DNA of 32,000 nucleotides, from the NCBI RefSeq assembly GCF_000012925.1, contig NC_007517.1, forward strand, positions 1,140,001-1,172,000, in the 5' to 3' direction. Of the stretch, positions 5,263 to 29,388 are shown one piece after another. Position 1 is the first letter of the stretch. Every line of letters begins with the position of its first letter. The position numbers and the translations under genes were made by a program. The stretch comes from Geobacter metallireducens GS-15 (GTDB lineage Bacteria; Desulfobacterota; Desulfuromonadia; Geobacterales; Geobacteraceae). The notes beneath the pieces were generated by a model. The model was not told where the DNA came from, did not search any database, and saw nothing but the letters and a program-made list of their open reading frames with translations.

Positions 5263-5339
5263 TGGCGGGCGGTATACGATTCGAACGTACGACCTCAGGC
5301 TTCGGAGGCCTGCGCTCTATCCAGCTGAGCTAACCGCCC
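5263..5339 (-). tRNA. tRNA-Arg (anticodon CCG)
   Basis: The reverse complement folds as a cloverleaf: acceptor GGGCGGU/ACCGCCC, D-arm GCUC/GAGC, anticodon loop CU-CCG-AA, T-loop UUCGAAU, encoded CCA. Confidence 0.92.
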
Positions 5340-8852: not shown

Positions 8853-9023
8853 TTAAGCAGCGCTGATGGCGCTGGTCGGGCAGGTGTCGACACAGGCACC
8901 ACAGTCGATGCAGGTGTCACCGTCAATTTTGTGCTTGTCACCGGCCGGGGCGATGGCGTTCACCGGGCAGGAATCGACACAGGAACCGCAGTTAGTACAG
9001 TCATCAGAAATAACGTGAGCCAC
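8853..9023 (-). CDS. fdx: 2x[4Fe-4S] ferredoxin (56 aa)
   Basis: GTG start 9 nt after AAGGAGG. Two CxxCxxCxxxCP motifs: CTNCGSCVDSCP and CIDCGACVDTCP. Confidence 0.85.
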   Translation of the reverse strand: MAHVISDDCTNCGSCVDSCPVNAIAPAGDKHKIDGDTCIDCGACVDTCPTSAISAA

Positions 9024-9141
9024 TGGTCCTACCTCCTTATAAAGGTTTTTGGTCTGAGCCAAATTATCCGTAAACATAGCACGGCGGGTTCCTGAAGTCC
9101 AGCAGAAAGGTGCTGCCCCAGAGTTGGAGTTCACAAAAAAC

Positions 9142-9170
9142 TTGAATTTAAGCCACCTGTATTGTATATA
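9142..9170 (+). promoter_or_regulatory. Sigma-70 promoter candidate upstream of ackA
   Basis: TTGAAT - 17 nt - TATATA in an AT-rich divergent intergenic region. Confidence 0.35.
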
Positions 9171-9283
9171 TAAAAAACAGTTTTATTTTTTGGGGCTTGC
9201 GACTTGCGGTATTTGAAATTATCCTGATATTCCACGTTTTATTACTGTTTAACGTTTTTTATTTTTACTCAATTTAGGAGGAT

Positions 9284-10552
9284 ATGATGGTAATTCTCGC
9301 CCTCAACTGCGGCAGCTCCTCGGTGAAATACCAGTTGTTCGACTGGGAAAAGAAAGAGGTCGTCGCCAAGGGTATGGTGGAGCGGGTCATTATCGGCGAC
9401 TCGTTCATCATGCACGAGGTTCCGGGCCGTGAAACCTACCGGAAGGAATATGAGTGCCCCGACCACAAGGTGGCCATCGATCTGATTATCAGGACCCTCG
9501 TTGATGGGGAGCACGGTGTCCTCAAGGATATCAATGAGATTTCCGCGGTTGGCCACCGTGTTGTCCACGGTGGAGAAATGTTCACCCGCTCGGTTCTCAT
9601 TGACGAGAAGGTGCTTGATGCCGTCAAGGATGTTCAGCACCTGGCACCCCTCCATAACCCGCCGAACATCGCCGGTATCGAGGCGGCCCAGGCTGTTCTC
9701 CCGTCAGTGCCGCACGTTGCCATTTTCGATACGGCTTTCCACCAGACAATGCCCGAGCATGCCTATCTCTACCCGCTTCCCTACGAGTGGTATGAGAAAT
9801 ATGGCGTCCGCCGCTACGGTTTCCACGGGACCTCTCACCTCTTCGTGTCGAAGCGGGCCGCTGTCCTGCTCGGCAAAAAACCTTCGGATTGCAACATCAT
9901 CACCATGCATATCGGCAACGGTGTTTCCCACTGTGCCATCAGGGGAGGGGTGTCCATCGATACCAGCATGGGGCTCACGCCGCTCGAAGGGGCGGTTATG
10001 GGCACCCGGTGCGGCGATATCGATCCGGCTATTCCGGCCTTCATGATGCAGAAGGAAAACCTTTCCGCCAAGGAAATCGACAGCATTCTCAACAAAAAGA
10101 GCGGGGTGCTGGGCGTGACCGGGCGCTTCACCGACCGCCGCGATGTGATCGAAAACGCCAATAATGGCGATCATCGCTGCAAGGTTGCCCTTGAGATCGA
10201 AGCGTACCGTCTCAAGAAGTATATCGGCACCTACATGGCGGTGCTCGGCCGTCTCGATGCGGTGGTTTTCACTGCCGGCGTCGGTGAGATGGGGTGGCCC
10301 ATCAGGGAGAAGACCATTGAAGGGCTCGAAGGTATCGGCATCAAACTGGACCGTGAGCGGAACAAAAGCGCCATGACCAGAAAACGGGAGACGCTCATTA
10401 CCACCGATGACTCCCCCATCAAGGTCTTCGTCATTCCCACCGACGAGGAACTTGTCTTTACCGAGGACGTGGTTGCCATACTCGATGGCACCTACACCGA
10501 CCACATGAACTTTGACTACTCGTTTGCGCGGCAGGACTTCGTTCGGTCCTAG
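9284..10552 (+). CDS. ackA: Acetate kinase
   Basis: AGGAGG RBS. N-terminus ILALNCGSSSVKYQLF, plus HRVVHGG, FDTAFHQTMP and GFHGTSH signature blocks. Confidence 0.97.
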   Translation: MMVILALNCGSSSVKYQLFDWEKKEVVAKGMVERVIIGDSFIMHEVPGRETYRKEYECPDHKVAIDLIIRTLVDGEHGVLKDINEISAVGHRVVHGGEMFTRSVLIDEKVLDAVKDVQHLAPLHNPPNIAGIEAAQAVLPSVPHVAIFDTAFHQTMPEHAYLYPLPYEWYEKYGVRRYGFHGTSHLFVSKRAAVLLGKKPSDCNIITMHIGNGVSHCAIRGGVSIDTSMGLTPLEGAVMGTRCGDIDPAIPAFMMQKENLSAKEIDSILNKKSGVLGVTGRFTDRRDVIENANNGDHRCKVALEIEAYRLKKYIGTYMAVLGRLDAVVFTAGVGEMGWPIREKTIEGLEGIGIKLDRERNKSAMTRKRETLITTDDSPIKVFVIPTDEELVFTEDVVAILDGTYTDHMNFDYSFARQDFVRS

Positions 10553-19180: not shown

Positions 19181-20911
19181 TCAGAAGTTCCAGAATTCGT
19201 CGATCTCGGCGTCGCTGAAATCCCAGACGGCGTTGTGGGGCGCCACCGGCTCGCTCTTGAAGAACTCCGGCAGGCGGTCGTGCTCACTGGTGAACCCGGC
19301 CGCGATGTTGAACTGCCGCTCGGTCTTCAGGATATATTTCCCCAGGTTGGTCACGTCGTCGCCGGTGAGGCTGATGCCGAAACGGGCGTTGATCATGTCG
19401 ATCAAGGCCGGCAGGCACTCGGGGATATCAAGGGCCGGAAAGGCGACGAAGATGCACATCCCCGTGGAATCCACCGCTGCCGTGGCGATCTGGAGGTTGC
19501 GGGAAAGCTCCACCTGGCCGTCCTTCTTCAGCGGGTCCACGAACCCCCCCACGTTGAGGATGTTGGTGGCGATTGTGTAGCCGGCGGTGTGGTCGGCCCC
19601 CATGGTGCTGGTGGCGTAGGTGATGCCGATCCCCTTCACCGACCGGGGGTCGTAGGCCGGGATGCCCTGGTTCTTAACCACCGGTACCCGGGTGACGCCG
19701 TAGGCCTTGCCCACTGAGCCGGCGCCGCCGCCGAGGATGCGGCCCAACGCGGTCCCCTTGGCAATCTCTTCTTCGAGCAGCCGGATGATCCCCTTGCCGT
19801 CGCCGAAGGGGAGGATGCCCGCCTCCATGGCAACGCCGAACATGACGGCGGTCTCGATGGAGTCGATGCCGATGTCGTCCATGAGGTTGTCGGCCCTGGC
19901 GATGTCGTCCAGGTTGTCGACGCAGCAGTCTGCGCCGAGCCCCCAGATGGTCTCGTACTCGAAGCCGGAGGTGACGTATTTCCCCTCCTTGTCGTGGTAG
20001 ACCTGGGAACACTGGATGATGCAACCGGCGTGGCAGCCGTGCTTGGTTTTTCCGCCGCGGGCAGCGATGGTCTCGTGCAAGGTCTCGCCGGAGATCTTGT
20101 CGTGGCTGTCGAACTGTCCCGCGGTGAAGTTACGGGTCGGCAGTCCCCCTGCCTCGTGGAGGATGTTCACCAGGACGTTGGTGCCATAGGTGGGGAGCCC
20201 TTCGCCGCTCACCGGGTGGTCCAGGAGCGCCTTGGCAAAGGCCCGGGAGGCGGTCCTGAATTTCTCCGGATCGGCGATCGGCACCTTGGGGGCCCCCTCG
20301 TCGTTGATGGAGATGAACTTGATCTTCTTGGAGCCCATGACGGCCCCCAACCCCCCGCGGCCGTGGCTGCGGATCTTGCTGTCCGGGTCCTTGACGGAGA
20401 TGTTGGCTGCGGTCATCTTCAGCTCGCCGGCCGGACCGATGGTGAGGATGCCGGTCTTCTTCCCGAGGCGGGCCTCAAGGGCCTCGATGACGGCGAAATT
20501 CCCTTTCCCCACCAGTTCCGTTTCTTCCTGAACGGCCACCCCGTCCATGGAGACGTGGAGGCTGTACCAGGTATCGGCCTTGGGGATTCCCTCGATGATC
20601 AGCGCCTTGATACCGAGGCGGGCGAGCATCTGGGCCGCGGTGCCTCCGGCGTTGCTTTCCTTGATGGTGCCGGTCAGGGGGCTCTTGGCCCCGGCCGAGA
20701 GGCGGCCCGAGTTGGCGGCCGGCGTTCCGGTCAGGAGTCCCGGGGCGAAGACAAGTTTGTTGCTGGGGCCCAGGGGGTGACAGGTGGGGGGGACCTCTGC
20801 GGCAACGATGGTCGAGGTCAGGCCGCGGCCGCCAAGCCCCGCCCATTCAGCGGGGACCGCCTCGATCCTGGTGCTCAGGTCGGCCATGTTTACGCGGATT
20901 ATCTTATCCAT
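19181..20911 (-). CDS. aor: Tungsten-containing aldehyde:ferredoxin oxidoreductase
   Basis: 576 aa. N-terminus MDKIIRVNM...GLGGRGL...GLLTGT.A..SGR...AKSPLTG. Internal CHAGCIIQC cluster region and GADH..GY pterin-binding blocks. Confidence 0.95.
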   Translation of the reverse strand: MDKIIRVNMADLSTRIEAVPAEWAGLGGRGLTSTIVAAEVPPTCHPLGPSNKLVFAPGLLTGTPAANSGRLSAGAKSPLTGTIKESNAGGTAAQMLARLGIKALIIEGIPKADTWYSLHVSMDGVAVQEETELVGKGNFAVIEALEARLGKKTGILTIGPAGELKMTAANISVKDPDSKIRSHGRGGLGAVMGSKKIKFISINDEGAPKVPIADPEKFRTASRAFAKALLDHPVSGEGLPTYGTNVLVNILHEAGGLPTRNFTAGQFDSHDKISGETLHETIAARGGKTKHGCHAGCIIQCSQVYHDKEGKYVTSGFEYETIWGLGADCCVDNLDDIARADNLMDDIGIDSIETAVMFGVAMEAGILPFGDGKGIIRLLEEEIAKGTALGRILGGGAGSVGKAYGVTRVPVVKNQGIPAYDPRSVKGIGITYATSTMGADHTAGYTIATNILNVGGFVDPLKKDGQVELSRNLQIATAAVDSTGMCIFVAFPALDIPECLPALIDMINARFGISLTGDDVTNLGKYILKTERQFNIAAGFTSEHDRLPEFFKSEPVAPHNAVWDFSDAEIDEFWNF

Positions 20912-21194: not shown

Positions 21195-22358
21195 CTACAT
21201 CGCCGCTTTGAAGATGCCGATCACTTGCTCCAAGGTCGCCTTGCGCGGGTTGGTCAGCTGGCAGGCGTCTTTCTTGGCGTTCTCGGCCATGACCTTCAGG
21301 TCCTCTTCTTTCACGTTCAGCTCCTTGAGGCCGGCCGGGATGCCGATGGCCGCCGAGAGCTTGCGGATGGCGGCAATGGCCTTGGCGGCGGCATCCAGGG
21401 GGGCAAGGCCGGTGATGTCTTCGCCCAGGGCCACGGCAATGTCGGCGTACCGCTTCGGGCAGGCGATGGCGTTGAATTCGGAAACCGCCGGCAGCAGGAT
21501 GGCGTTGCAGACCCCGTGGGGGAGGTTGTAGAAGCCCCCCAACTGGTGGGCCATGGAGTGGACGTAGCCGAGGCTCGCGTTGTTGAATGCCATGCCGGCC
21601 AGGTACTCGGCGTAGGCCATCCGGTCCCGGGCTTCCAGGTTGTCGCCGTTAGCCACGGCCGGGCTCAGGTACTCGGCGATCAGCTTGATGGCCTGGAGGG
21701 CGCAGGCGTCGGTGATGGGGGTGGCGATGGTGGAGACGTAGGCCTCGACCGCGTGGGTGAGGGCGTCCATGCCGGTGGCGGCGGTGAGGGGCGCGGGCTT
21801 GCCGAGCATGAGGACCGGGTCGTTGATGGCGATGTTCGGGGTGCAGCGCCAGTCGACAATGGCCATCTTCACGTGGGTGTCAGTGTTGGTGATGATGCAG
21901 AAGCGGGTCATCTCCGAGGCGGTGCCGGCAGTGGTGTTGATGGCGACGAAGGGGGGCATCGGCTTCGTGGATTTGTTAACCCCTTCGAAATCGCGGATGT
22001 GGCCGCCGTTGCCGATCACGAGGCCCACCCCCTTGGCGCAGTCGTGGGAGCTGCCGCCGCCGAGGGAGATGATGGAGTCGCAGCCGTTCTCCTGATAGAC
22101 CTTGACGCCGTCGTGGACGTTGGTGTCGGTGGGGTTCGGCTCGGCGCCGTCGAAGATGACGACCGCGACGCCGGCAGCCTCAACCTGCTGTTTGATCTGG
22201 TCGGCCATCCCCATGGCCGAGATCCCCTTGTCGGTCACCAGGAGCGCCTTCCGGGCGCCCAGCGCCTTTACCTGCGCGCCGGTCTCCTTGGAGGAGCCGA
22301 CCCCCATGAGCGTAACGGTGGGAATGAAGAATCCGAAAGTCTGATCTGCCAGTGCCAT
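21195..22358 (-). CDS. Iron-containing (group III) alcohol dehydrogenase, paralog 1
   Basis: AAGGAGGAA RBS before MALADQTF. GGGSSHDCAKG, TTAGTASE and TGMDALTHAVE..., HSMAHQLG, LPHGVCNA metal-binding blocks. Confidence 0.92.
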   Translation of the reverse strand: MALADQTFGFFIPTVTLMGVGSSKETGAQVKALGARKALLVTDKGISAMGMADQIKQQVEAAGVAVVIFDGAEPNPTDTNVHDGVKVYQENGCDSIISLGGGSSHDCAKGVGLVIGNGGHIRDFEGVNKSTKPMPPFVAINTTAGTASEMTRFCIITNTDTHVKMAIVDWRCTPNIAINDPVLMLGKPAPLTAATGMDALTHAVEAYVSTIATPITDACALQAIKLIAEYLSPAVANGDNLEARDRMAYAEYLAGMAFNNASLGYVHSMAHQLGGFYNLPHGVCNAILLPAVSEFNAIACPKRYADIAVALGEDITGLAPLDAAAKAIAAIRKLSAAIGIPAGLKELNVKEEDLKVMAENAKKDACQLTNPRKATLEQVIGIFKAAM

Positions 22359-22467
22359 GTGTACTTCCTCCTTGTTGGTGTGTGGCGTTCTGCCACTGCG
22401 GTGGAAACTTTCTCTGTTCAACCTGCCAGTTGTCATACGGTTTTTTAGAACGGCTGTTTGTGACTAA

Positions 22468-22869: not shown

Positions 22870-23094
22870 ATGGGAAAACCGGTCAGCGTGAACCCCAAGC
22901 CGACGGTCATATCGGTACGGGTCACCGACGATCAGATGGAGGAGATCCGGCGGCTCATGGAAAAGAAGAAGATGAGCGCCTCGGATATCATGCGCGAGGC
23001 GTTCTGTTCATTCGTGGAAAATGCGGAACAAAGGCGAATGGATGCCATCCGGGCTGCGGCTCTGAAGTACACCGAAGCCCGCGGGGAGGCCTGA
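22870..23094 (+). CDS. Ribbon-helix-helix (CopG/MetJ-like) DNA-binding protein
   Basis: AGGAGG RBS. PTVISVRVTDDQMEEIRRLMEKKKMSASDIMREAF fits a beta-strand/helix/helix RHH pattern. Confidence 0.7.
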   Translation: MGKPVSVNPKPTVISVRVTDDQMEEIRRLMEKKKMSASDIMREAFCSFVENAEQRRMDAIRAAALKYTEARGEA

Positions 23095-23134: not shown

Positions 23135-23180
23135 AAAAAAACCGCTCCTGTCTGCTTAGGGCCGACGGAGCGGTTTTTTT
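23135..23180 (+). terminator. Intrinsic terminator
   Basis: ACCGCTCC - 18 nt - GGAGCGGT followed by T7 and preceded by A6. Confidence 0.75.
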
Positions 23181-23228: not shown

Positions 23229-23438
23229 ATGCTGCTGGAACAATTGGTTGAACAGGCCGCGCAGCCTCCGAAGTACGACTGGGATGCCTACTATCGCTGG
23301 CTGTTCAGCACCCTCGCTGGCCGGGAAGTCACCAGCTTTGCTTTCTGGCAGTGCCCCCACTGTCTCACCATCAACTTTTTCCTCCCTGCGCAGCGGTACG
23401 GGAAGTGCCGCGGGTGCGACCTGATTCACCTTCCCTAG
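23229..23438 (+). CDS. Small zinc-ribbon hypothetical protein (69 aa)
   Basis: GGGAGG RBS. CPHC...CRGC four-Cys pattern in the C-terminal half. Confidence 0.5.
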   Translation: MLLEQLVEQAAQPPKYDWDAYYRWLFSTLAGREVTSFAFWQCPHCLTINFFLPAQRYGKCRGCDLIHLP

Positions 23439-23681: not shown

Positions 23682-25382
23682 CTATCTTCCGAACTGCACC
23701 CCAAGCAACTTATTTTCCGGCTTATCCCCCCGCAAAGTTACAGCAATGGTTTGACATAACTGCTCCCACTCTAGATCACTCAGATATTCCTTCATCGCCT
23801 CAAAATTTTCAGTGTTAATGGATGCTACGTACTGTTTACCATTTGCTGCCGCCGTTGCCACAGCGTTGGTAAACCAGGCGGCACGCGGTTTAGGATCCAT
23901 ATGAGCGAACAGCCGGTTGTCATGCCAGAGAAGGCCGCAATTGTGATTTGCCCCGTTTAGAAGGATAGTCCAGTCGAAACATACGACCTTGGCCGCATTA
24001 ATTCCGTCAGAATCATCACCATCGATTTCGACTGTCAAATTGTACCGAAGCTGATTGTCGCCAGTGTTGGCCTCAAGAATGATACCTGCCGGTGTCCGAG
24101 GATAAAGTAGCTCTGCCAGCGCTGAGAAGTTTTTATCAGCCTGCATCAAAGGCTCAGATTCGGCATAACTCGCCGCGACCCGATCCTCTGCTACCATGTC
24201 CTCCTTGATGTTCTGCACCTTCTTCTGAAGGGTGTTAGCAAAGTCCAGAAATTCACCGAGCCGCTCTCGCTCACCCTCGTACCGTGCAAGCTGTTGGGCC
24301 AAGGCAGCGTATTCATCCAGCGCCCTCTTCCCTTGCAGCGATGCAAGCAGTTGATCCCGCCTTTCGCCTATGGCATTGCGTCTGGACTCGAGATCGTTCA
24401 CCCGAGCAGCCAGTCGGGCTCTATCACCCTCAAGGCGGATTTTCCGATTAAAGGAGAGTGAGTTGTGGAAGGCTTCCACGGCTTCAAAATGGGCCAACAT
24501 TTCCGGCCTGAAAACCTCTTGCAGTCCGGCATAAAGTTCGATCAACTCGTCTTTACTAATATCCGGTTGATTGGTCAGCGCCTTATTGATACCGTCGATT
24601 TGAAACCCACAGATGGCAATCTGCTTCTCGATTTCCCTTAGATCGCTGGTGAGGCTGTTTGTCTCTATCTCAATGGCTCGGTAATCCTCTGCCACACGGA
24701 ATTTGGCAAGGTCCGCCCTAATTCGGAGAATTTCTTTATCTAGCCATTCAGCCCGCACCTTCGGCTGGCTTCCAGCTCTGAACATGTCCCGTAGAACATG
24801 GTCTGTGTCCCAAGTTTTCAGGCTCTTCTTCAGTTCATCGATCCGGTTCTTGTGGGATTTTTTTGCGGCAACAAGATGGCAGTCTCCTCCGAGCAGGTAG
24901 AGGCTGCGTAACAGACCATCAAAATCAGATTCTTTGAAAGTGACGATAGGATCGACACAATCTTTGAGATGGCGTCGTCCGAACCTAGTAAACAGTGAAC
25001 GGAATGTTAGTCCAGGTAGATCAGGAACGAGGCGGAAGACCCCTGATGCATTAAGCCATTCCAGAAGTTTCTTATGGGAAATCTTCCTTTCATCAAGTGC
25101 CAATTTCTTCCCGTCCGCGCTCCGTTCGATCAAGTGATCCTGTCCATCGATGCTGAATTCGAGTGAGAAAACCCATTCTGGGATGCTAGCTTTAAGTTTG
25201 TGGTCGAGCGTTGCGCCGAGGCAGTGATGTACCAGTTTCAGGGCGAGGGTCTTCCCGACGCCGTTACTGCTCCCTTCCTGGCGGTCAGGCGAACTGTCCC
25301 CGACAATAAGGTTCAGGCCGTCTGGATTGAACGGAATCGAGTGAAAAGATTTTTGATTGGCGGAAAGCTGGATAAGTTTCAT
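23682..25382 (-). CDS. ABC/SMC-type coiled-coil ATPase (DUF2326/YydD-like; ABC-3C system ATPase)
   Basis: Start taken at MKLIQLSANQ (ATGA overlap with the upstream gene). LNLIVG + 10-aa insert + SNGVGKT P-loop. ~250-aa heptad-rich central region. C-terminal DSDGINAAK (signature-like) and GLLWHDNRLFAHMD (Walker B/D-loop-like). Confidence 0.85.
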   Translation of the reverse strand: MKLIQLSANQKSFHSIPFNPDGLNLIVGDSSPDRQEGSSNGVGKTLALKLVHHCLGATLDHKLKASIPEWVFSLEFSIDGQDHLIERSADGKKLALDERKISHKKLLEWLNASGVFRLVPDLPGLTFRSLFTRFGRRHLKDCVDPIVTFKESDFDGLLRSLYLLGGDCHLVAAKKSHKNRIDELKKSLKTWDTDHVLRDMFRAGSQPKVRAEWLDKEILRIRADLAKFRVAEDYRAIEIETNSLTSDLREIEKQIAICGFQIDGINKALTNQPDISKDELIELYAGLQEVFRPEMLAHFEAVEAFHNSLSFNRKIRLEGDRARLAARVNDLESRRNAIGERRDQLLASLQGKRALDEYAALAQQLARYEGERERLGEFLDFANTLQKKVQNIKEDMVAEDRVAASYAESEPLMQADKNFSALAELLYPRTPAGIILEANTGDNQLRYNLTVEIDGDDSDGINAAKVVCFDWTILLNGANHNCGLLWHDNRLFAHMDPKPRAAWFTNAVATAAANGKQYVASINTENFEAMKEYLSDLEWEQLCQTIAVTLRGDKPENKLLGVQFGR

Positions 25383-25639
25383 GTGTTCTGCACAGAATAA
25401 ATTCGTCCGTCCCCCACAAATTCCACTGCACCAATGGCATAGAGTACATCCACTGCCAAGACGAGGTGGGTGAAAGAAGGCCGGGATTGCCAACCGGAAG
25501 AATCGCGGTCGACTTGAGTCCATAGCTCGTCGAGAGTATGCGGCTCCACCAAGAGGTGTCGCAGATATCCCGACAAGCCAACAATCGAGTCACTGAAGCG
25601 GACGTGTTTATGCGGGATTAAAGCTGTTCGGATGCTCAT
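25379..25639 (-). CDS. Small middle-component protein of the ABC-3C-like operon (~86 aa)
   Basis: ATG at 25639 (TTG at 25657 is the alternative). It overlaps the upstream gene by 32 nt and the ATPase gene by ATGA. The LxELW...LAVDVLYAIG pattern suggests a small helical or wHTH-like domain. Confidence 0.6.
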   Translation of the reverse strand: MSIRTALIPHKHVRFSDSIVGLSGYLRHLLVEPHTLDELWTQVDRDSSGWQSRPSFTHLVLAVDVLYAIGAVEFVGDGRIYSVQNT

Positions 25640-26558
25640 ATGCGTCACACGTTTCAAAATACTTGGCGATAATAACCTGGGCAGCCTGTCGATATGCCTT
25701 CATGGAATGCGGATGACGTGGTAGTGAGGTAGGAATAAGCCTGTCTATTAGCCAGACATACCGCTCATTAGGCGCATCTGCGGAATTTGGGATGACCTTT
25801 TTACTGTCATGGTACAGGGCTTTGATCTCGAAGGCGATTTTTTGGGCTAAGCCGATGTCCCTAGCATTCAGGAATCGGTCAACATCAGCAACTTGATAAA
25901 AGTAGTAACTTAGCGACTCTGAAACAGGCGATTTTATCCCATTGAGTTTAATCTTCGCATCAAAATCAGGGCTTACTCCATCCAGTAGTGAAGGATGAGT
26001 ATTGTCACCATCGGCAAGACCGGTAAGCAACTCGCTTACTGCATGCGGATCGATAAAGTCCGGGAGTTCTGACGGTATTCCATATACAATCGCCACTTTT
26101 TGCGAATCCTTTAAGCTTATGAACCGAGCTGTTAGGTCAGCCGACGAAAACGGGGTGGCTTCAAGTAGCTTTTCCTGTTTGGCCAAATCCAGCAGCATAC
26201 TTCCGATGGGTGCCGGCATCCCGCAATAGCGATCATTGCAAACAAAATGGTAGCGCTCAACGCCTGGCCATTTTTTCCTCAGCTTCGCAAAATCGCCGAC
26301 AGCCTTTGTCGCCGCCTGTACAACGTTCACTTCTGTTGTCGCCTCCGGCCCATAAACCTGAAAGTACCGGTTTTCTGGTGGGCACCAACCGTCATTACCG
26401 CCATCTCCCCAGTTTCCCCACGGAGCAACGGCCTGAAATCCTGGAAGAGCTTGCTGCATTACCTCGCTGAAGAGCCTCTGAAACGCATTTCCAGAGGCCT
26501 CATATAGTCGCAGTTTGAAAAGCGTTCTATACCAGAAATCTTCATGAAGAGAGGTCAT
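25608..26558 (-). CDS. Putative effector: Mrr-like restriction-endonuclease-fold N-domain + helical C-terminal (ABC-3C CTD-like) domain
   Basis: GAGGA RBS. FQRLFSEVMQQALPGFQAVAPWGNWGDGGNDGW...YFQVYG matches the Mrr-type hhGxxGDxGxDG...Q-x-K layout, but with Y at the Lys position. Confidence 0.7.
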   Translation of the reverse strand: MTSLHEDFWYRTLFKLRLYEASGNAFQRLFSEVMQQALPGFQAVAPWGNWGDGGNDGWCPPENRYFQVYGPEATTEVNVVQAATKAVGDFAKLRKKWPGVERYHFVCNDRYCGMPAPIGSMLLDLAKQEKLLEATPFSSADLTARFISLKDSQKVAIVYGIPSELPDFIDPHAVSELLTGLADGDNTHPSLLDGVSPDFDAKIKLNGIKSPVSESLSYYFYQVADVDRFLNARDIGLAQKIAFEIKALYHDSKKVIPNSADAPNERYVWLIDRLIPTSLPRHPHSMKAYRQAAQVIIAKYFETCDAYEHPNSFNPA

Positions 26559-26593
26559 GGAATCCTCGTCGACAGGGTCGCAACTTGAACTGG

Positions 26594-26602
26594 TTTATAA
26601 CA
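26594..26602 (-). promoter_or_regulatory. Extended -10 promoter candidate for the three-gene operon
   Basis: Minus strand TGTTATAAA (TGnTATAAA) ~30 nt upstream of the ATG at 26558. There is no good -35. Confidence 0.35.
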
Positions 26603-26723: not shown

Positions 26724-27239
26724 CTATTCATCCTCCCCCCGCGGTCGCCGCAACTGAATAACCTTCGCAGGCCCATCTTTCAGAAATCGGGCATATCTCT
26801 CCGCCCAGTCATAGTAGTGGGCCACTCCCGCCTCCTCGGCTTCGGCGAGTTCACCAGACCAGTCCGAGCAGAGATCGGCAAGCATGAGGTCGGAGACTTC
26901 CCCTATCCAGGGCTGGTACACGACTTCCCCTTCTCCGGAATCGGTATCCGCCTTCAACAATAGGTATTTTTTCTCTCCGGCAATCTCGGTGAAGATCTCT
27001 TTGTCGTCGCCGGCTGATTCCGTTACGCAGACAGCGTCGACGCCGTATTCCTCAGCAGCGAAATTCCCGCGCCACTCATCAGCGGGGATGGTTTCCGCCC
27101 CGGCAAGGGCTGCAGAGACCGCCTCATTTTCCTCTCCCGCTTCCACCTCAATGTCCACGTACTCGAAGACCGGCCGAACCAGCCTGACCATGAATCTCTT
27201 TTTCTCCATCGGCGTTTTCTCCCTATCCGCATCAAGCAC
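26724..27239 (-). CDS. Highly acidic hypothetical protein (161-171 aa)
   Basis: Alternative ATG at 27209 has a GGGAGAA RBS. My hand count is ~38 D/E versus ~17 K/R. I recognise no motif. Confidence 0.6.
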   Translation of the reverse strand: MLDADREKTPMEKKRFMVRLVRPVFEYVDIEVEAGEENEAVSAALAGAETIPADEWRGNFAAEEYGVDAVCVTESAGDDKEIFTEIAGEKKYLLLKADTDSGEGEVVYQPWIGEVSDLMLADLCSDWSGELAEAEEAGVAHYYDWAERYARFLKDGPAKVIQLRRPRGEDE

Positions 27240-27260: not shown

Positions 27261-27623
27261 CTACACCGCGATCTTCAACTGAATCTCGTCGTAATCGACC
27301 CGCGGTGCGAGCGCCCGGTTTCCCGTCGTTTCGACGAGCCCCACCTGAACGAGGAATTTTACGTCCTCGGCCACGTTCTTGATGTTGCGATGTGCGAGCT
27401 TTGCCAGATGGTTAATGGAGACCGGTTTTTCGGTCTTGATTATATGGATAAGCTCCAGGCGCTTGGGGGTGAGTGCCTTGCGGAAGGCCTCCATTGACGT
27501 GAAATAGATGGACGTCTCTTCGGCAACGACCTCGCCGCGGGCCACTGTGTCGCCGGCGGCAATAAAATCATCGAGTGCGCCGCGTGCGCTTTGGATTCCC
27601 ACCGAAATCTCTTTTATCTTCAT
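27261..27623 (-). CDS. HTH (MarR/ArsR-like wHTH) DNA-binding protein, putative antitoxin partner of DUF6516
   Basis: ARGE...SFTSMEAFRKALTPKRLELIHIIKTEKPVSINHLAKLAHRNIKNVAEDVKFLVQVGLVE. ATGA overlap with the upstream gene. Confidence 0.8.
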   Translation of the reverse strand: MKIKEISVGIQSARGALDDFIAAGDTVARGEVVAEETSIYFTSMEAFRKALTPKRLELIHIIKTEKPVSINHLAKLAHRNIKNVAEDVKFLVQVGLVETTGNRALAPRVDYDEIQLKIAV

Positions 27624-27907
27624 TTTGTTTGCTCCTTGAACCGCTCAATATCCGCGAGAAAGTCATCCGCCAGTTTTTGGAGGCTGGTAAAGGCATATGA
27701 CTCCTGAAAATCTCCATAATGCCGGTGATCCCCTTGCCGTTCTCCATTGTCATATCCAATGGCTCGTTCGCCGTTGACGATGTAGACGAGGGAGTACCTG
27801 AAACCATGTGGCTTGTCGGAAGCAGGGGCAACTTGCCATAGCTTCATTTCAAGGGTATTTCCCAACTCGTCGGTTACTTTGGTATGGCGAATGAGCCGTG
27901 CCTTCAT
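27620..27907 (-). CDS. DUF6516-like protein (annotated in some databases as TumE-family toxin)
   Basis: KARLIRHTKVTDELGNTLEMKLWQV...PHGFRYSLVYIVNGERAIGYDNGERQGDHRHY. ATG at 27907 has no SD; TTG at 27925 is the alternative. Confidence 0.72.
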   Translation of the reverse strand: MKARLIRHTKVTDELGNTLEMKLWQVAPASDKPHGFRYSLVYIVNGERAIGYDNGERQGDHRHYGDFQESYAFTSLQKLADDFLADIERFKEQTK

Positions 27908-27942
27908 ATTGGTTTTGTATACCAATAATAGTTGGCTGTCAA
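27907..27942 (-). promoter_or_regulatory. Promoter plus inverted-repeat operator of the TA-like pair; possibly a leaderless mRNA
   Basis: Minus strand TTGACA - 17 nt - TACAAA (or 15 nt - TATACA), ending 6 nt before the ATG. The IR TATTGGT-N7-ACCAATA (27907-27927) spans the -10 and the start. Confidence 0.4.
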
Positions 27943-28090: not shown

Positions 28091-28131
28091 AAAATGGAGT
28101 AGTGGCCATGGTTCCAAAATGGAGCAGTGGC
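28091..28131 (+). repeat. Two 16-nt direct repeats, 25-nt period
   Basis: AAAATGGAGTAGTGGC and AAAATGGAGCAGTGGC, with one mismatch. Confidence 0.85.
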
Positions 28132-28196
28132 GTGGCCCATTGTGGCGCAAAACGCCGTAAACGCTCGTTCGACGCCTTGTGCACGGGAATTGCACA

Positions 28197-28216
28197 TGTA
28201 TACGGCTGTATACGGC
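28197..28216 (+). repeat. Perfect tandem 10-nt duplication in the adh2 leader
   Basis: TGTATACGGC TGTATACGGC. Each copy contains the palindrome GTATAC. Confidence 0.9.
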
Positions 28217-28239
28217 ATCATTCCCTTGAAGGAGACACT

Positions 28240-29388
28240 GTGAACATCAGCAAGTTTGTGGCGCCGGAGATCATCTTCGGCCAGGGCTCCCTGAGCCAGA
28301 TCGGCGAGAGCGCCGCCCGCATCGGCGCCTCCAAGGTGTTCTTGGTCAGCGACGAGGATGTCATCAGCGCCGGCTGGGTAGACAAGGCGCTCCACTACCT
28401 CCATGCCGTCGGCCTGGAAACGGAAATCTACTCGTCCCTCACCTCCAATCCGAAGGATTTCGAGGTGTTGGAGGGTGCCCGTCACTACGTGGCCTCGGGG
28501 TGTGACGCCATCGTCGCCGTGGGTGGGGGGAGCCCCACCGACGTGGCCAAGGCGGTGGCCATCCTTGCCAGCAACGGGGGGGAGCTGCGCGACTACGAGG
28601 GGATCAACAGGATTTCCCGGCCGCTCCCGCCGATGGTGATCGCCCCCTCTACCGCCGGAGCCGGTTCCGAGGTGAGCCCGTTCGCCATCATAGTCGACAC
28701 CGAGCGGAAGCTGAAGATGTCCATCATCTCCAAATCCCTGGTGCCGGATATCGCCATCGTCGACCCGGAGCTTCTCAGGACCAAGGATGCGAAGCTGGCG
28801 GCCGCCACCGGCATGGATGCCCTCACCCACGGCATCGAGTCCTACGTCTCCCTGGCGGCTACCCCCCTGACCGACATCCACGCCTGCAAGGCGATCCAGC
28901 TCATCGCGGCCAACCTGCGCCGGGCGGTGGCCGACCGGGGTGACATGGAGGCCAACACCAACATGGCCATGGCAAGCCTCACGGCGGGCATCGCCTTCTC
29001 CAACGCCATCCTTGGCGCCACCCATGCCATGACCCATCAGGTGGACGGCCTCCTGGACCAGCACCACGGCGAGGCCAACGCCTCGATCCTCCCCCACGTC
29101 ATGGAGTTCAACCTCTCGGCCTGCCCGGAGCGGTTCAAGCATATCGCCTGGTCCCTGGGGAAGGACGTGCGCAACACCGGCCAAGAGGAGGGGGCCCGGC
29201 TGGCCATCGAGGGGATCCGGGAACTGATTGCCGACATCGGTCTCGCCAAGGGGCTTGGCGCCATGGGGCTGCGGGAGGAGTTCATACCTCTCCTCAGCCG
29301 CAACGCCTTGAACGATGCCTGTCTGGTGACCAATCCGCGCAATGCGACTGTCGACGACATTGAAGCCATCTTCCGCAAGGCGATGTAG
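28240..29388 (+). CDS. Iron-containing (group III) alcohol dehydrogenase, paralog 2
   Basis: GTG start 6 nt after GAAGGAG. GGGSPTDVAKA, STAGAGSE and TGMDALTHGIE, HAMTHQV, HHGEANA blocks. Confidence 0.9.
   Translation: MNISKFVAPEIIFGQGSLSQIGESAARIGASKVFLVSDEDVISAGWVDKALHYLHAVGLETEIYSSLTSNPKDFEVLEGARHYVASGCDAIVAVGGGSPTDVAKAVAILASNGGELRDYEGINRISRPLPPMVIAPSTAGAGSEVSPFAIIVDTERKLKMSIISKSLVPDIAIVDPELLRTKDAKLAAATGMDALTHGIESYVSLAATPLTDIHACKAIQLIAANLRRAVADRGDMEANTNMAMASLTAGIAFSNAILGATHAMTHQVDGLLDQHHGEANASILPHVMEFNLSACPERFKHIAWSLGKDVRNTGQEEGARLAIEGIRELIADIGLAKGLGAMGLREEFIPLLSRNALNDACLVTNPRNATVDDIEAIFRKAM

Follow-up and report, generated by a model that had tools for sequence, protein, structure and literature searches.

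An ABC-three-component cassette of the YydD/DUF2326, MC6 and CTD10 subtype in Geobacter metallireducens GS-15, a probable defence system of the Lamassu superfamily

The three-gene cassette and its protein families

A 32,000-nucleotide stretch of Geobacter metallireducens GS-15 DNA (contig NC_007517.1, positions 1,140,001 to 1,172,000), referred to throughout as the window, carries at positions 23682 to 26558 a cassette of three minus-strand genes that encode, in order, an effector-like protein, a small middle component (MC) and an ABC ATPase akin to the SMC and Rad50 proteins. An earlier, sequence-only reading had described these as three co-directional and tightly coupled genes of 316, approximately 86 and 566 aa, and this arrangement was reproduced in full from the open reading frames (ORFs): the effector and middle genes overlap by exactly 32 nt, and the TGA of the middle gene and the ATG of the ATPase gene overlap as ATGA. 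The starts that give proteins of 86 and 566 aa are preferred over the mechanical ORFs of 92 and 613 aa, since homologues of the middle gene (MSIxTAL...) and of the ATPase (MKLxxL...) begin at the same methionines. The effector is 100% identical to G. metallireducens GeomeDRAFT_1843, annotated as an 'ABC-three component system protein', and the 566-aa ATPase is also 100% identical to a G. metallireducens protein. The three-gene cassette is intact, and comprises the following features, in which ABC-3C denotes ABC-three-component and AF2 denotes AlphaFold2.

26558..25608, minus strand: effector gene (LmuA-like), an ORF of 316 aa with an N-terminal restriction endonuclease-like (REase-like) domain and a C-terminal ABC-3C docking domain
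26049..26558, minus strand: N-terminal domain of the effector (residues 1 to ~170), from AF2 secondary structure and conservation
25635..26039, minus strand: CTD10 domain of the effector (residues 174-308; Pfam PF20275), a predicted docking and oligomerisation module
25639..25379, minus strand: middle component gene (MC6, in an LmuC-like position), 86 aa, ATG at 25639 and stop at 25379
25382..23682, minus strand: SMC/Rad50-like ABC ATPase gene (YydD/DUF2326 family, LmuB-like), 566 aa, ATG at 25382 and stop at 23682
26602..26594, minus strand: candidate extended -10 element, TGtTATAAA, 35 nt 5' of the effector ATG, by direct reading
26563..26567, minus strand: Shine-Dalgarno-like GAGGA, 4 nt before the effector ATG, by direct reading

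Comparison with the Pfam profiles placed all three proteins above the curated cut-offs of their families. Residues 174-308 of the effector match CTD10 (PF20275; E = 3.6e-10, 41 bits against a cut-off of 28.1), a domain that was present in all 44 of the effector relatives (44/44); the middle protein matches MC6 (PF20293; E = 6e-14, 52.2 bits against 27.2); and the C-terminal head of the ATPase matches DUF2326 (E = 4.6e-31, 107.8 bits against 28.7). NCBIfam returned a meaningful match for none of the three proteins. Homologues in NCBI already bear the names 'ABC-three component system protein' and 'middle component 6'. ABC-3C systems were reportedly set out by Krishnan, Burroughs, Iyer and Aravind in 2020, and the present cassette shares with them the CTD10, MC6 and DUF2326/YydD families, the order effector-MC-ATPase and translational coupling, with no difference in architecture; it differs in that no Pfam model covers the N-terminal domain of its effector. 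All four marks of an ABC-3C system are found, namely a DUF2326 ATPase, an MC lying between, an effector with a C-terminal domain (CTD) of this class and a conserved three-gene operon. The curated profiles, together with the synteny described below, confirm the ABC-3C assignment, gene order and domain logic that were put forward in the sequence-only reading.

The PADLOC profiles gave a more graded picture. PDC-M68B matches the ATPase over its full length (E = 2e-73), whereas PDC-M68A matches the present effector weakly (E = 0.008) and through the CTD only, the N-terminal domain being unlike that of the PDC-M68A models. PDC-M68A is matched by 43 of the 44 effector relatives, again through the CTD, with a best value of 8.6e-8. 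PDC-M68 is a two-family guilt-by-embedding candidate of PADLOC, embedded in known defence systems (Payne et al. 2024), and calls for both profiles in adjacent genes; both are found here, with the A match weak for this effector. The LmuA profile PDLC03852 likewise matches the present effector weakly (E = 0.021), and was matched through the N-terminal domain by 37 of the 44 relatives (best 1.3e-7). The MC6 protein had no PADLOC match.

Synteny was examined in 33 loci from a genome scan with the effector alignment, supplemented by two homologue look-ups and a search of Escherichia coli. The order effector, MC, ATPase recurs in approximately 30 other genomes or loci. Wherever the effector match is full-length or C-terminal the MC lies directly downstream, followed by the ATPase unless the contig ends (loci L001-L029 and L037), and in L001, L002, L003 and most other loci the effector and MC genes keep their 32-nt overlap. 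The cassette occurs in Desulfuromonadales, Gammaproteobacteria, Alphaproteobacteria, Acidobacteriota (Terriglobus), Synergistaceae and a Chlorobiaceae metagenome-assembled genome (MAG). Relatives in other Desulfuromonadales and in the Chlorobiaceae MAG share 70-87% identity with preserved overlaps, and orthologues of ~54% identity are found in Enterobacter, Citrobacter, Pectobacterium and a few E. coli. Among complete E. coli genomes the cassette was present in 7 of 5426; the single E. coli locus that was inspected (H17) has ars genes and two tyrosine integrases next to the cassette, in an integrase-bearing island. Fifty plasmids encode homologues of the DUF2326-family ATPase, frequently with an annotated MC6 gene as neighbour. 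Rhizobium lusitanum plasmid NZ_CP050306 (L039 2618-6044) has an HNH_2 endonuclease, and not the REase-like effector, ahead of the MC6 and DUF2326 core, indicating that the same sensor core can be paired with a different effector.

Several further details were apparent at individual loci. In the Rhizobium variant a Hypoth_Ymh (TIGR02391) protein follows the HNH, MC6 and DUF2326 genes (L039), and could feasibly be a fourth component of that variant. In E. coli Combat11I9 a 311-aa protein with a weak match to HEPN/RES N-terminal domain 1 is encoded directly downstream of the cassette on the opposite strand (L037 11984-12919); two tyrosine integrases and an arsenic-resistance cluster surround this cassette, and the whole resembles an integrative island. 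In Acinetobacter variabilis (L022 5001-9735) the effector and MC genes are separated by an insertion of approximately 2.8 kb, and E. coli H16 and H20 have the insertion sequences (IS) IS903B or ISSen4 inside the cassette.

The G. metallireducens cassette is foreign-looking and was probably acquired horizontally. Its GC content is 49.9%, compared with 63.1% in the left flank and 62.1% in the right flank, and it contains the lowest-GC 2.9-kb stretch in the window (minimum 49.8% at 23751; window mean 58.7%, standard deviation 4.4). Hand counts of GC made in the sequence-only reading proved exact (43.3% at 24001, 43.3% at 25621 and 63.3% at 20401).

Properties of the ATPase and of the effector

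The sequence-only reading had recognised in the large protein a P-loop, a long heptad-rich middle region and a C-terminal pair of signature-like and Walker-B-like motifs. The motifs are present. The P-loop reads GSSNGVGKT, the signature-like motif DSDGINAAK and the Walker-B-like motif LLWHDN, and their cores are invariant in 37 ATPase homologues (G37, N40, G41, G43 and K44; S458 to N462, that is S-D-G-I-N; W486, H487 and D488), with T45 and N489 conserved in at least 90% of the same set. The AF2 model (mean predicted local distance difference test score, pLDDT, 85.8) has split head halves (residues ~1-165 and 425-566) and an antiparallel helical arm of ~240 residues, with no CxxC zinc hook. 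A 9-residue insertion immediately precedes the P-loop, and residues 30-41 are poorly modelled. The Walker B motif is followed by the nearly invariant N489 and not by a catalytic glutamate; since asparagine replaces this glutamate, the ATPase is more likely to be a slow, switch-like binder of ATP than a motor, and the motif as it stands suggests slow hydrolysis.

When the ATPase model was compared with the PDB using Foldseek, the first-ranked match was the Bacillus subtilis YydD model (9A6C_A; 1.3e-23, template-modelling score 0.62), the title of entry 9A6C describing a YydD-YydB integrative model from cross-linking mass spectrometry data. Together with the Pfam DUF2326 match, this bears out the earlier description of the protein as a DUF2326/YydD-like ATPase. 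The next matches were chains of Lamassu LmuB (9UXH_F, 9HQX and 9HQU; 4.7e-13 to 1.6e-11), with a further chain, 9UX7_A, slightly further down the ranking (9.4e-11). The matches that follow are to SMC heads, cohesin, condensin, Rad50, RecN and JetC, two of them just above 9UX7_A. Among experimentally solved structures, the ATPase as modelled is closest to Lamassu LmuB.

The resemblance of the ATPase model to Rad50, SMC heads and RecN, and the proposal that Lamassu itself derives from SbcCD, could also be accommodated by a housekeeping complex for DNA repair or chromosome maintenance, in which the REase-like protein would be the counterpart of Mre11 or SbcD. Such a complex is very improbable in view of the patchy and mobile distribution of the cassette (7 of 5426 E. 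coli genomes, plasmids and islands), its foreign composition and the absence of conserved flanking genes. The effectors are, moreover, swappable, as with the HNH protein on the same core, the catalytic glutamate after Walker B is replaced by asparagine, and the proteins have curated membership in conflict-system families.

The AF2 model of the effector (pLDDT 83.7) has an alpha-beta-beta-beta-alpha-beta unit at its N-terminus and a helical CTD after it, and the order of secondary structure elements in the N-terminal domain fits the alpha-beta-beta-beta-alpha-beta core of the PD-(D/E)xK enzymes. A GDGGNDG motif is invariant in the family. Conservation across 140 representatives reaches 100% at D52, D56, Q67 and N108, 99% at K85 and 91% at K/R110, with E/Q27, D89 and D109 also essentially fixed. 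In Foldseek comparisons the effector matched the restriction endonuclease EcoT38I with a probability of 0.98 and a weak E value of 0.08, with the YydB chain of the YydD-YydB model ranked second (probability 0.80) and the nuclease domains of Avs4, Cap4 and Hef among other weak matches. Alignment with the effectors of Lamassu-Mrr using hhalign brought the FE/FQ, GDxGxD, YQx and YxFV motifs into register. As far as can be judged from the sequence, the N-terminal domain is REase-like with an Mrr-like layout, and is not assigned to the Mrr_cat family; the effector is likely to be a nuclease.

A number of results count against that activity. Foldseek support for an REase fold was confined throughout to E > 0.03, with EcoT38I, Avs4, Cap4 and Hef all at E >= 0.08. 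The effector had no match to Mrr_cat (PF04471) at E <= 1, sub-threshold matches were obtained with 3 of the 44 relatives (best E = 0.059), and there were no matches at E <= 0.01 among 55 distant relatives. The canonical REase lysine position (residue 69), which aligns with K110 in the QCK motif of LmuA from E. coli SE15, is occupied by tyrosine, and by tyrosine, phenylalanine or histidine in 140 of 140 relatives. Nuclease activity is not assured, because the canonical lysine is missing and no nuclease profile was reached. Mrr identity was also sought by hhalign with Lamassu-Mrr effectors, and was rejected as not significant whether a 2-sequence template (E = 0.089) or 113 sequences (E = 0.016, probability 2.9%) were used. 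The Mrr-type endonuclease motif claimed for this protein in the sequence-only reading is thus Mrr-like at most: the motif order and the predicted fold agree with an REase core, but the (D/E/Q)xK lysine is lacking and no Mrr profile is reached.

These same observations invite an alternative explanation, in which the architecture and defence role are retained and the effector is not a DNase. It might instead act upon another substrate, perhaps RNA or a nucleotide cofactor, by means of a rearranged active site, or it might be a non-catalytic DNA-binding or sensor module, with toxicity arising in some other way. The composition of position 69, the lack of a match to Mrr_cat or any other nuclease model in Pfam, the non-significant hhalign result and the absence of Q67 from a Streptomyces relative are all consistent with this idea. 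However, the strictly conserved set of polar residues (D52, D56, Q67, N108, K85, D89, D109 and K/R110) speaks for an active enzyme as opposed to a degenerate fold, the order and register of the FE/FQ, GDxGxD and YQx motifs are those of Mrr-type effectors, and REases, along with the nuclease domains of Avs4 and Cap4, supply the structural matches. In PD-(D/E)xK enzymes, furthermore, catalytic residues are well known to have moved to other positions. An effector that is not a DNase is considered unlikely, if still worth bearing in mind, and an effector that degrades DNA is preferred.

The N-terminal domain is not confined to cassettes of this type. A profile search of 1.84 billion representatives recovered it in 1384 proteins, most of which are ~310 aa in length and carry CTD10, with some fused to NACHT/nSTAND3 NTPases; it also heads TPR and PIN-TPR-GreABC proteins of ~1270-1290 aa. 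This pattern of fusion is typical of a portable immune effector. The motif GDGGNDG..YYQVY..FVYNDK was noted in a TPR-PIN protein of a Desulfobacter MAG (L034 4965-8831), and also in P0321, P0322, P0324, P0354 and others.

Relation to Lamassu and proposed mechanism

ABC-3C systems are treated, along with DdmABC, as part of the Lamassu superfamily of bacterial defences against phages and plasmids in reviews and structure papers (PMC10586767; 10.1101/2025.03.14.643221). Four operons of the Lamassu family have been validated, among them Lamassu-Mrr of E. coli SE15, which has an abortive-infection phenotype (Millman et al. 2022; 10.1101/2022.05.11.491447); defence requires the ATPase, the effector and LmuC, and abortive-infection defence was observed with every tested member of the wider family (10.1101/2022.05.11.491447). 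In 2025 cryo-electron microscopy revealed a mechanism of sequestration, release and tetramerisation (PMC12663957). In the Vibrio cholerae and Salmonella systems one LmuA is held by two folded LmuB and LmuC (LmuA1B2C1), the complex binds DNA ends, and the freed LmuA forms a tetramer with an active nuclease site. The opinion, expressed in the sequence-only reading, that no experimental mechanism was available is consequently outdated at the level of the family. The same reading had ranked the locus as the window's best candidate for a novel defence system; since the family has already been validated elsewhere, the locus is not such a candidate, and only its subtype has candidate status. The SE15 Lamassu-Mrr proteins, taken from the Millman supplement, carry ABC-3C CTD6 and MC2 domains and a sub-threshold Mrr_cat match, and the validated Lamassu systems can therefore be regarded as ABC-3C systems of other subfamilies.

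The closest solved counterparts are the short Lamassu systems, with the gene order LmuA-LmuC-LmuB (V. cholerae DdmABC and Salmonella LmuACB; PDB 9NY5, 9HQU, 9HQX and 9UXH). The present cassette shares with these its three genes and their order. Both have an SMC-like ATPase of ~600 aa whose coiled coil is short, which lacks a zinc hook (as does the V. cholerae protein) and in which Walker B is followed by a residue other than glutamate, and both have an effector composed of an N-terminal enzyme and a C-terminal docking domain. At 566 aa the ATPase fits 'short' LmuB, LmuB ATPases in general being of ~600-800 aa. The two differ in that the cassette has DUF2326, MC6 and CTD10 in place of a LmuB-profile ATPase, an MC2-type LmuC and CTD6 or other domains, and its effector is not Cap4. 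The ATPase Walker B sequence is hhhhDN (LLWHD followed by N489), which falls outside the hhhhD[Q/S/T/E] set listed for short Lamassu, and whereas the Lamassu Walker A motif is Gx4GK[S/T], the P-loop here is GSSNGVGKT and is preceded by the insertion.

Lamassu-Mrr of E. coli O150:H5 SE15 resembles the cassette in having an ABC-3C-type operon and an effector with a small N-terminal REase-fold domain, with FE..GDxGxD..YQx in register. However, the SE15 effector has kept the QCK lysine and scores 19.8 bits with Mrr_cat, whereas the cassette effector has QVY and no Mrr_cat match, and CTD6 and a 168-aa MC2 in SE15 stand in place of CTD10 and the 86-aa MC6. SE15 Lamassu-Mrr was considered as an orthologue and rejected, the CTD and MC families being others and the system not being among the 7 E. 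coli DNA matches. In B. subtilis YydB-YydC-YydD, of which YydD is the DUF2326 prototype, YydD and YydB supply the best structural match to the ATPase and the second-ranked match to the effector; nevertheless, YydD has only 17% sequence identity with the cassette ATPase, and YydB has 481 residues. For yydBCD no function has been published beyond Rok silencing.

Taking these comparisons together, the cassette is probably a horizontally acquired ABC-3C defence system of the Lamassu superfamily, of the YydD/DUF2326, MC6 and CTD10 subtype. By analogy with Lamassu, two of the 566-aa SMC-like ATPases would fold back upon their short coiled-coil arms and, with the 86-aa MC6 protein, clamp the CTD10 domain of a single effector, which would thereby be kept monomeric and inactive. 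The ATPase and MC6 could then bind an abnormal nucleic acid structure of a replicating phage or plasmid, for example DNA ends or hairpins, whereupon ATP-driven engagement of the heads would free the effector. The freed effector would self-associate via CTD10, so activating the N-terminal REase-like domain, which would degrade DNA indiscriminately such that infection is aborted, with the cell killed or arrested, or the plasmid is lost. Complex stoichiometry, trigger, release, oligomerisation and nuclease chemistry are all inferred from the solved Lamassu systems. The sequence-only reading had proposed something similar, in that an ATPase sensor would license the effector through a small adaptor; that scheme now has experimental support from related Lamassu systems, with the reservation that the nuclease-like effector has no canonical lysine.

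Some results sit less comfortably with this explanation. The match of the ATPase to the PADLOC LmuB profile (2.7e-11) is limited in span to residues 4-93, the P-loop region. Comparison of MC6 with MC2-type LmuC by hhalign revealed no similarity (E = 0.52), and the MC6 profile matched none of the PDB sequences; MC6 is equivalent to LmuC by position only. PDB sequences searched with the effector and ATPase proteins, and with N-terminal domain, MC6 and ATPase profiles, gave chance-level matches or none, and no functional study was found in the literature on DUF2326, PDC-M68 and YydD. The three family memberships, the conserved operon, the fold relation between the ATPase and LmuB, the modularity of the effector domain and the foreign composition are nevertheless established by the present analysis.

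The lack of similarity between MC6 and LmuC, the P-loop insertion, the hhhhDN motif, CTD10 and the lysine-less effector all set the cassette apart from the solved Lamassu systems, and so allow for differences in trigger or chemistry. It could perhaps be conjectured, as a tentative and somewhat doubtful proposition, that the DUF2326/MC6/CTD10 branch is more than a further variety of Lamassu. The lysine-less, REase-derived domain of its effector, with a strictly conserved set of residues (D52, D56, Q67, K85, N108, D109 and K/R110), would in that case have a rearranged active site or a substrate other than DNA, and would have been recruited independently by ABC-3C ATPases, NACHT/STAND NTPases and TPR-PIN proteins, with the ATPase and MC6 core sensing a trigger other than DNA ends.

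Genomic context and implications

The cassette lies within a low-GC island of 5.6 kb (52% GC, compared with ~62-63%) that also holds a TumE and helix-turn-helix (HTH) gene pair and small ORFs with ribbon-helix-helix (RHH) and zinc-ribbon character. Two divergently oriented paralogues of iron-containing alcohol dehydrogenase, 43% identical to each other, bracket the island. The features surrounding the cassette are as follows.

21195-22436, minus strand, and 28102-29388, plus strand: Fe-alcohol-dehydrogenase paralogues, the borders of the island
22870-23094, plus strand: small RHH (CopG/NikA-like) ORF
23135-23180: perfect 14-bp hairpin flanked by A7 and T7, bidirectional terminator-like
23229-23438, plus strand: 69-aa ORF with weak, sub-threshold zinc-ribbon matches
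26724-27239, minus strand: 171-aa acidic ORF, directly upstream of the effector gene
27261-27623, minus strand: HVO_A0114-type HTH protein (PF25212, 9e-24)
27620-27925, minus strand: TumE toxin (PF20126, 2.7e-11)

The TumE and HTH genes share a 4-nt overlap, and form a toxin-antitoxin-like pair upstream of the cassette in the island; the RHH ORF, the hairpin and the 69-aa ORF are likewise in the island, downstream of the ATPase gene. The 171-aa acidic ORF matches nothing in Pfam or PADLOC, and in other genomes it is not kept beside the cassette. The 171-aa ORF, the TumE pair, the RHH ORF and the zinc-ribbon gene were each considered as members of the system and rejected, none of them recurring beside the cassette elsewhere. 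Since no flanking gene of the window accompanies the cassette in other genomes, the three genes constitute the mobile unit. Terminal repeats, an integrase and a tRNA gene were sought at the edges of the low-GC island and none was found. Outside the island, the left side carries an aldehyde:ferredoxin oxidoreductase gene and the right side a GAF-PAS histidine kinase gene. Further afield, the sole tRNA gene of the window, tRNA-Arg(CCG) at 5263-5339 on the minus strand, is located within a generally lower-GC first 10 kb, and there is a further dip in GC (45%) at 9001-9500.

This setting raises the question of whether the cassette might be a selfish addiction or stabilisation module, akin to a toxin-antitoxin system, of a mobile island with no anti-phage role, or a silent relic that is not expressed in Geobacter. 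Its foreign composition, the adjoining TumE pair, the frequent occurrence of relatives on plasmids and integrative islands, and the IS-disrupted copies in E. coli and Acinetobacter would all fit, and expression from a promoter of the cassette's own, as envisaged in the sequence-only reading, finds little encouragement. The sequence TGtTATAAA is certainly present, but the candidate extended -10 at 26602..26594 is absent from the list produced by a consensus promoter scan, and promoter-like matches in the region do not exceed those in shuffled sequence; the candidate remains a bare sequence match. Two further points detract from a defence role: the toxin-antitoxin-like TumE pair is the only known defence system adjoining the cassette in the window, and no ATPase homologue was found in a phage collection. 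Conversely, the three ORFs are intact, 70-87% identical to their relatives and preserved in their overlaps, and abortive-infection defence has been seen with every tested member of the wider family. DUF2326 is also significantly enriched beside known defence genes, its defence-island score being 0.487 (407 genes, 104 genera, q = 0; Millman 2022, Table S1), although the family was not then counted as defence. Defence and addiction are, in any case, not mutually exclusive. An addiction module devoid of an anti-phage role, or a relic, is on balance improbable, and a Lamassu-superfamily defence system is retained as the preferred explanation.

The sequence-only reading was right with respect to the identity of the cassette, and overstates both its novelty and the Mrr assignment. 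In most respects the locus is ordinary, in that systems of this kind, with their gene logic and probable mechanism, have already been described; the most interesting detail is the lysine-less, REase-like effector domain for which Pfam has no model. With 1384 representatives, and being common to STAND and TPR-PIN proteins, this domain merits definition as a family. The cassette adds a well-delimited and intact example of a candidate Lamassu-superfamily subtype for a model metal-reducing bacterium, and its orthologues in Enterobacter, Citrobacter, Pectobacterium and E. coli offer a practical test of whether the release-and-oligomerise mechanism of Lamassu reaches the YydD/DUF2326 branch.

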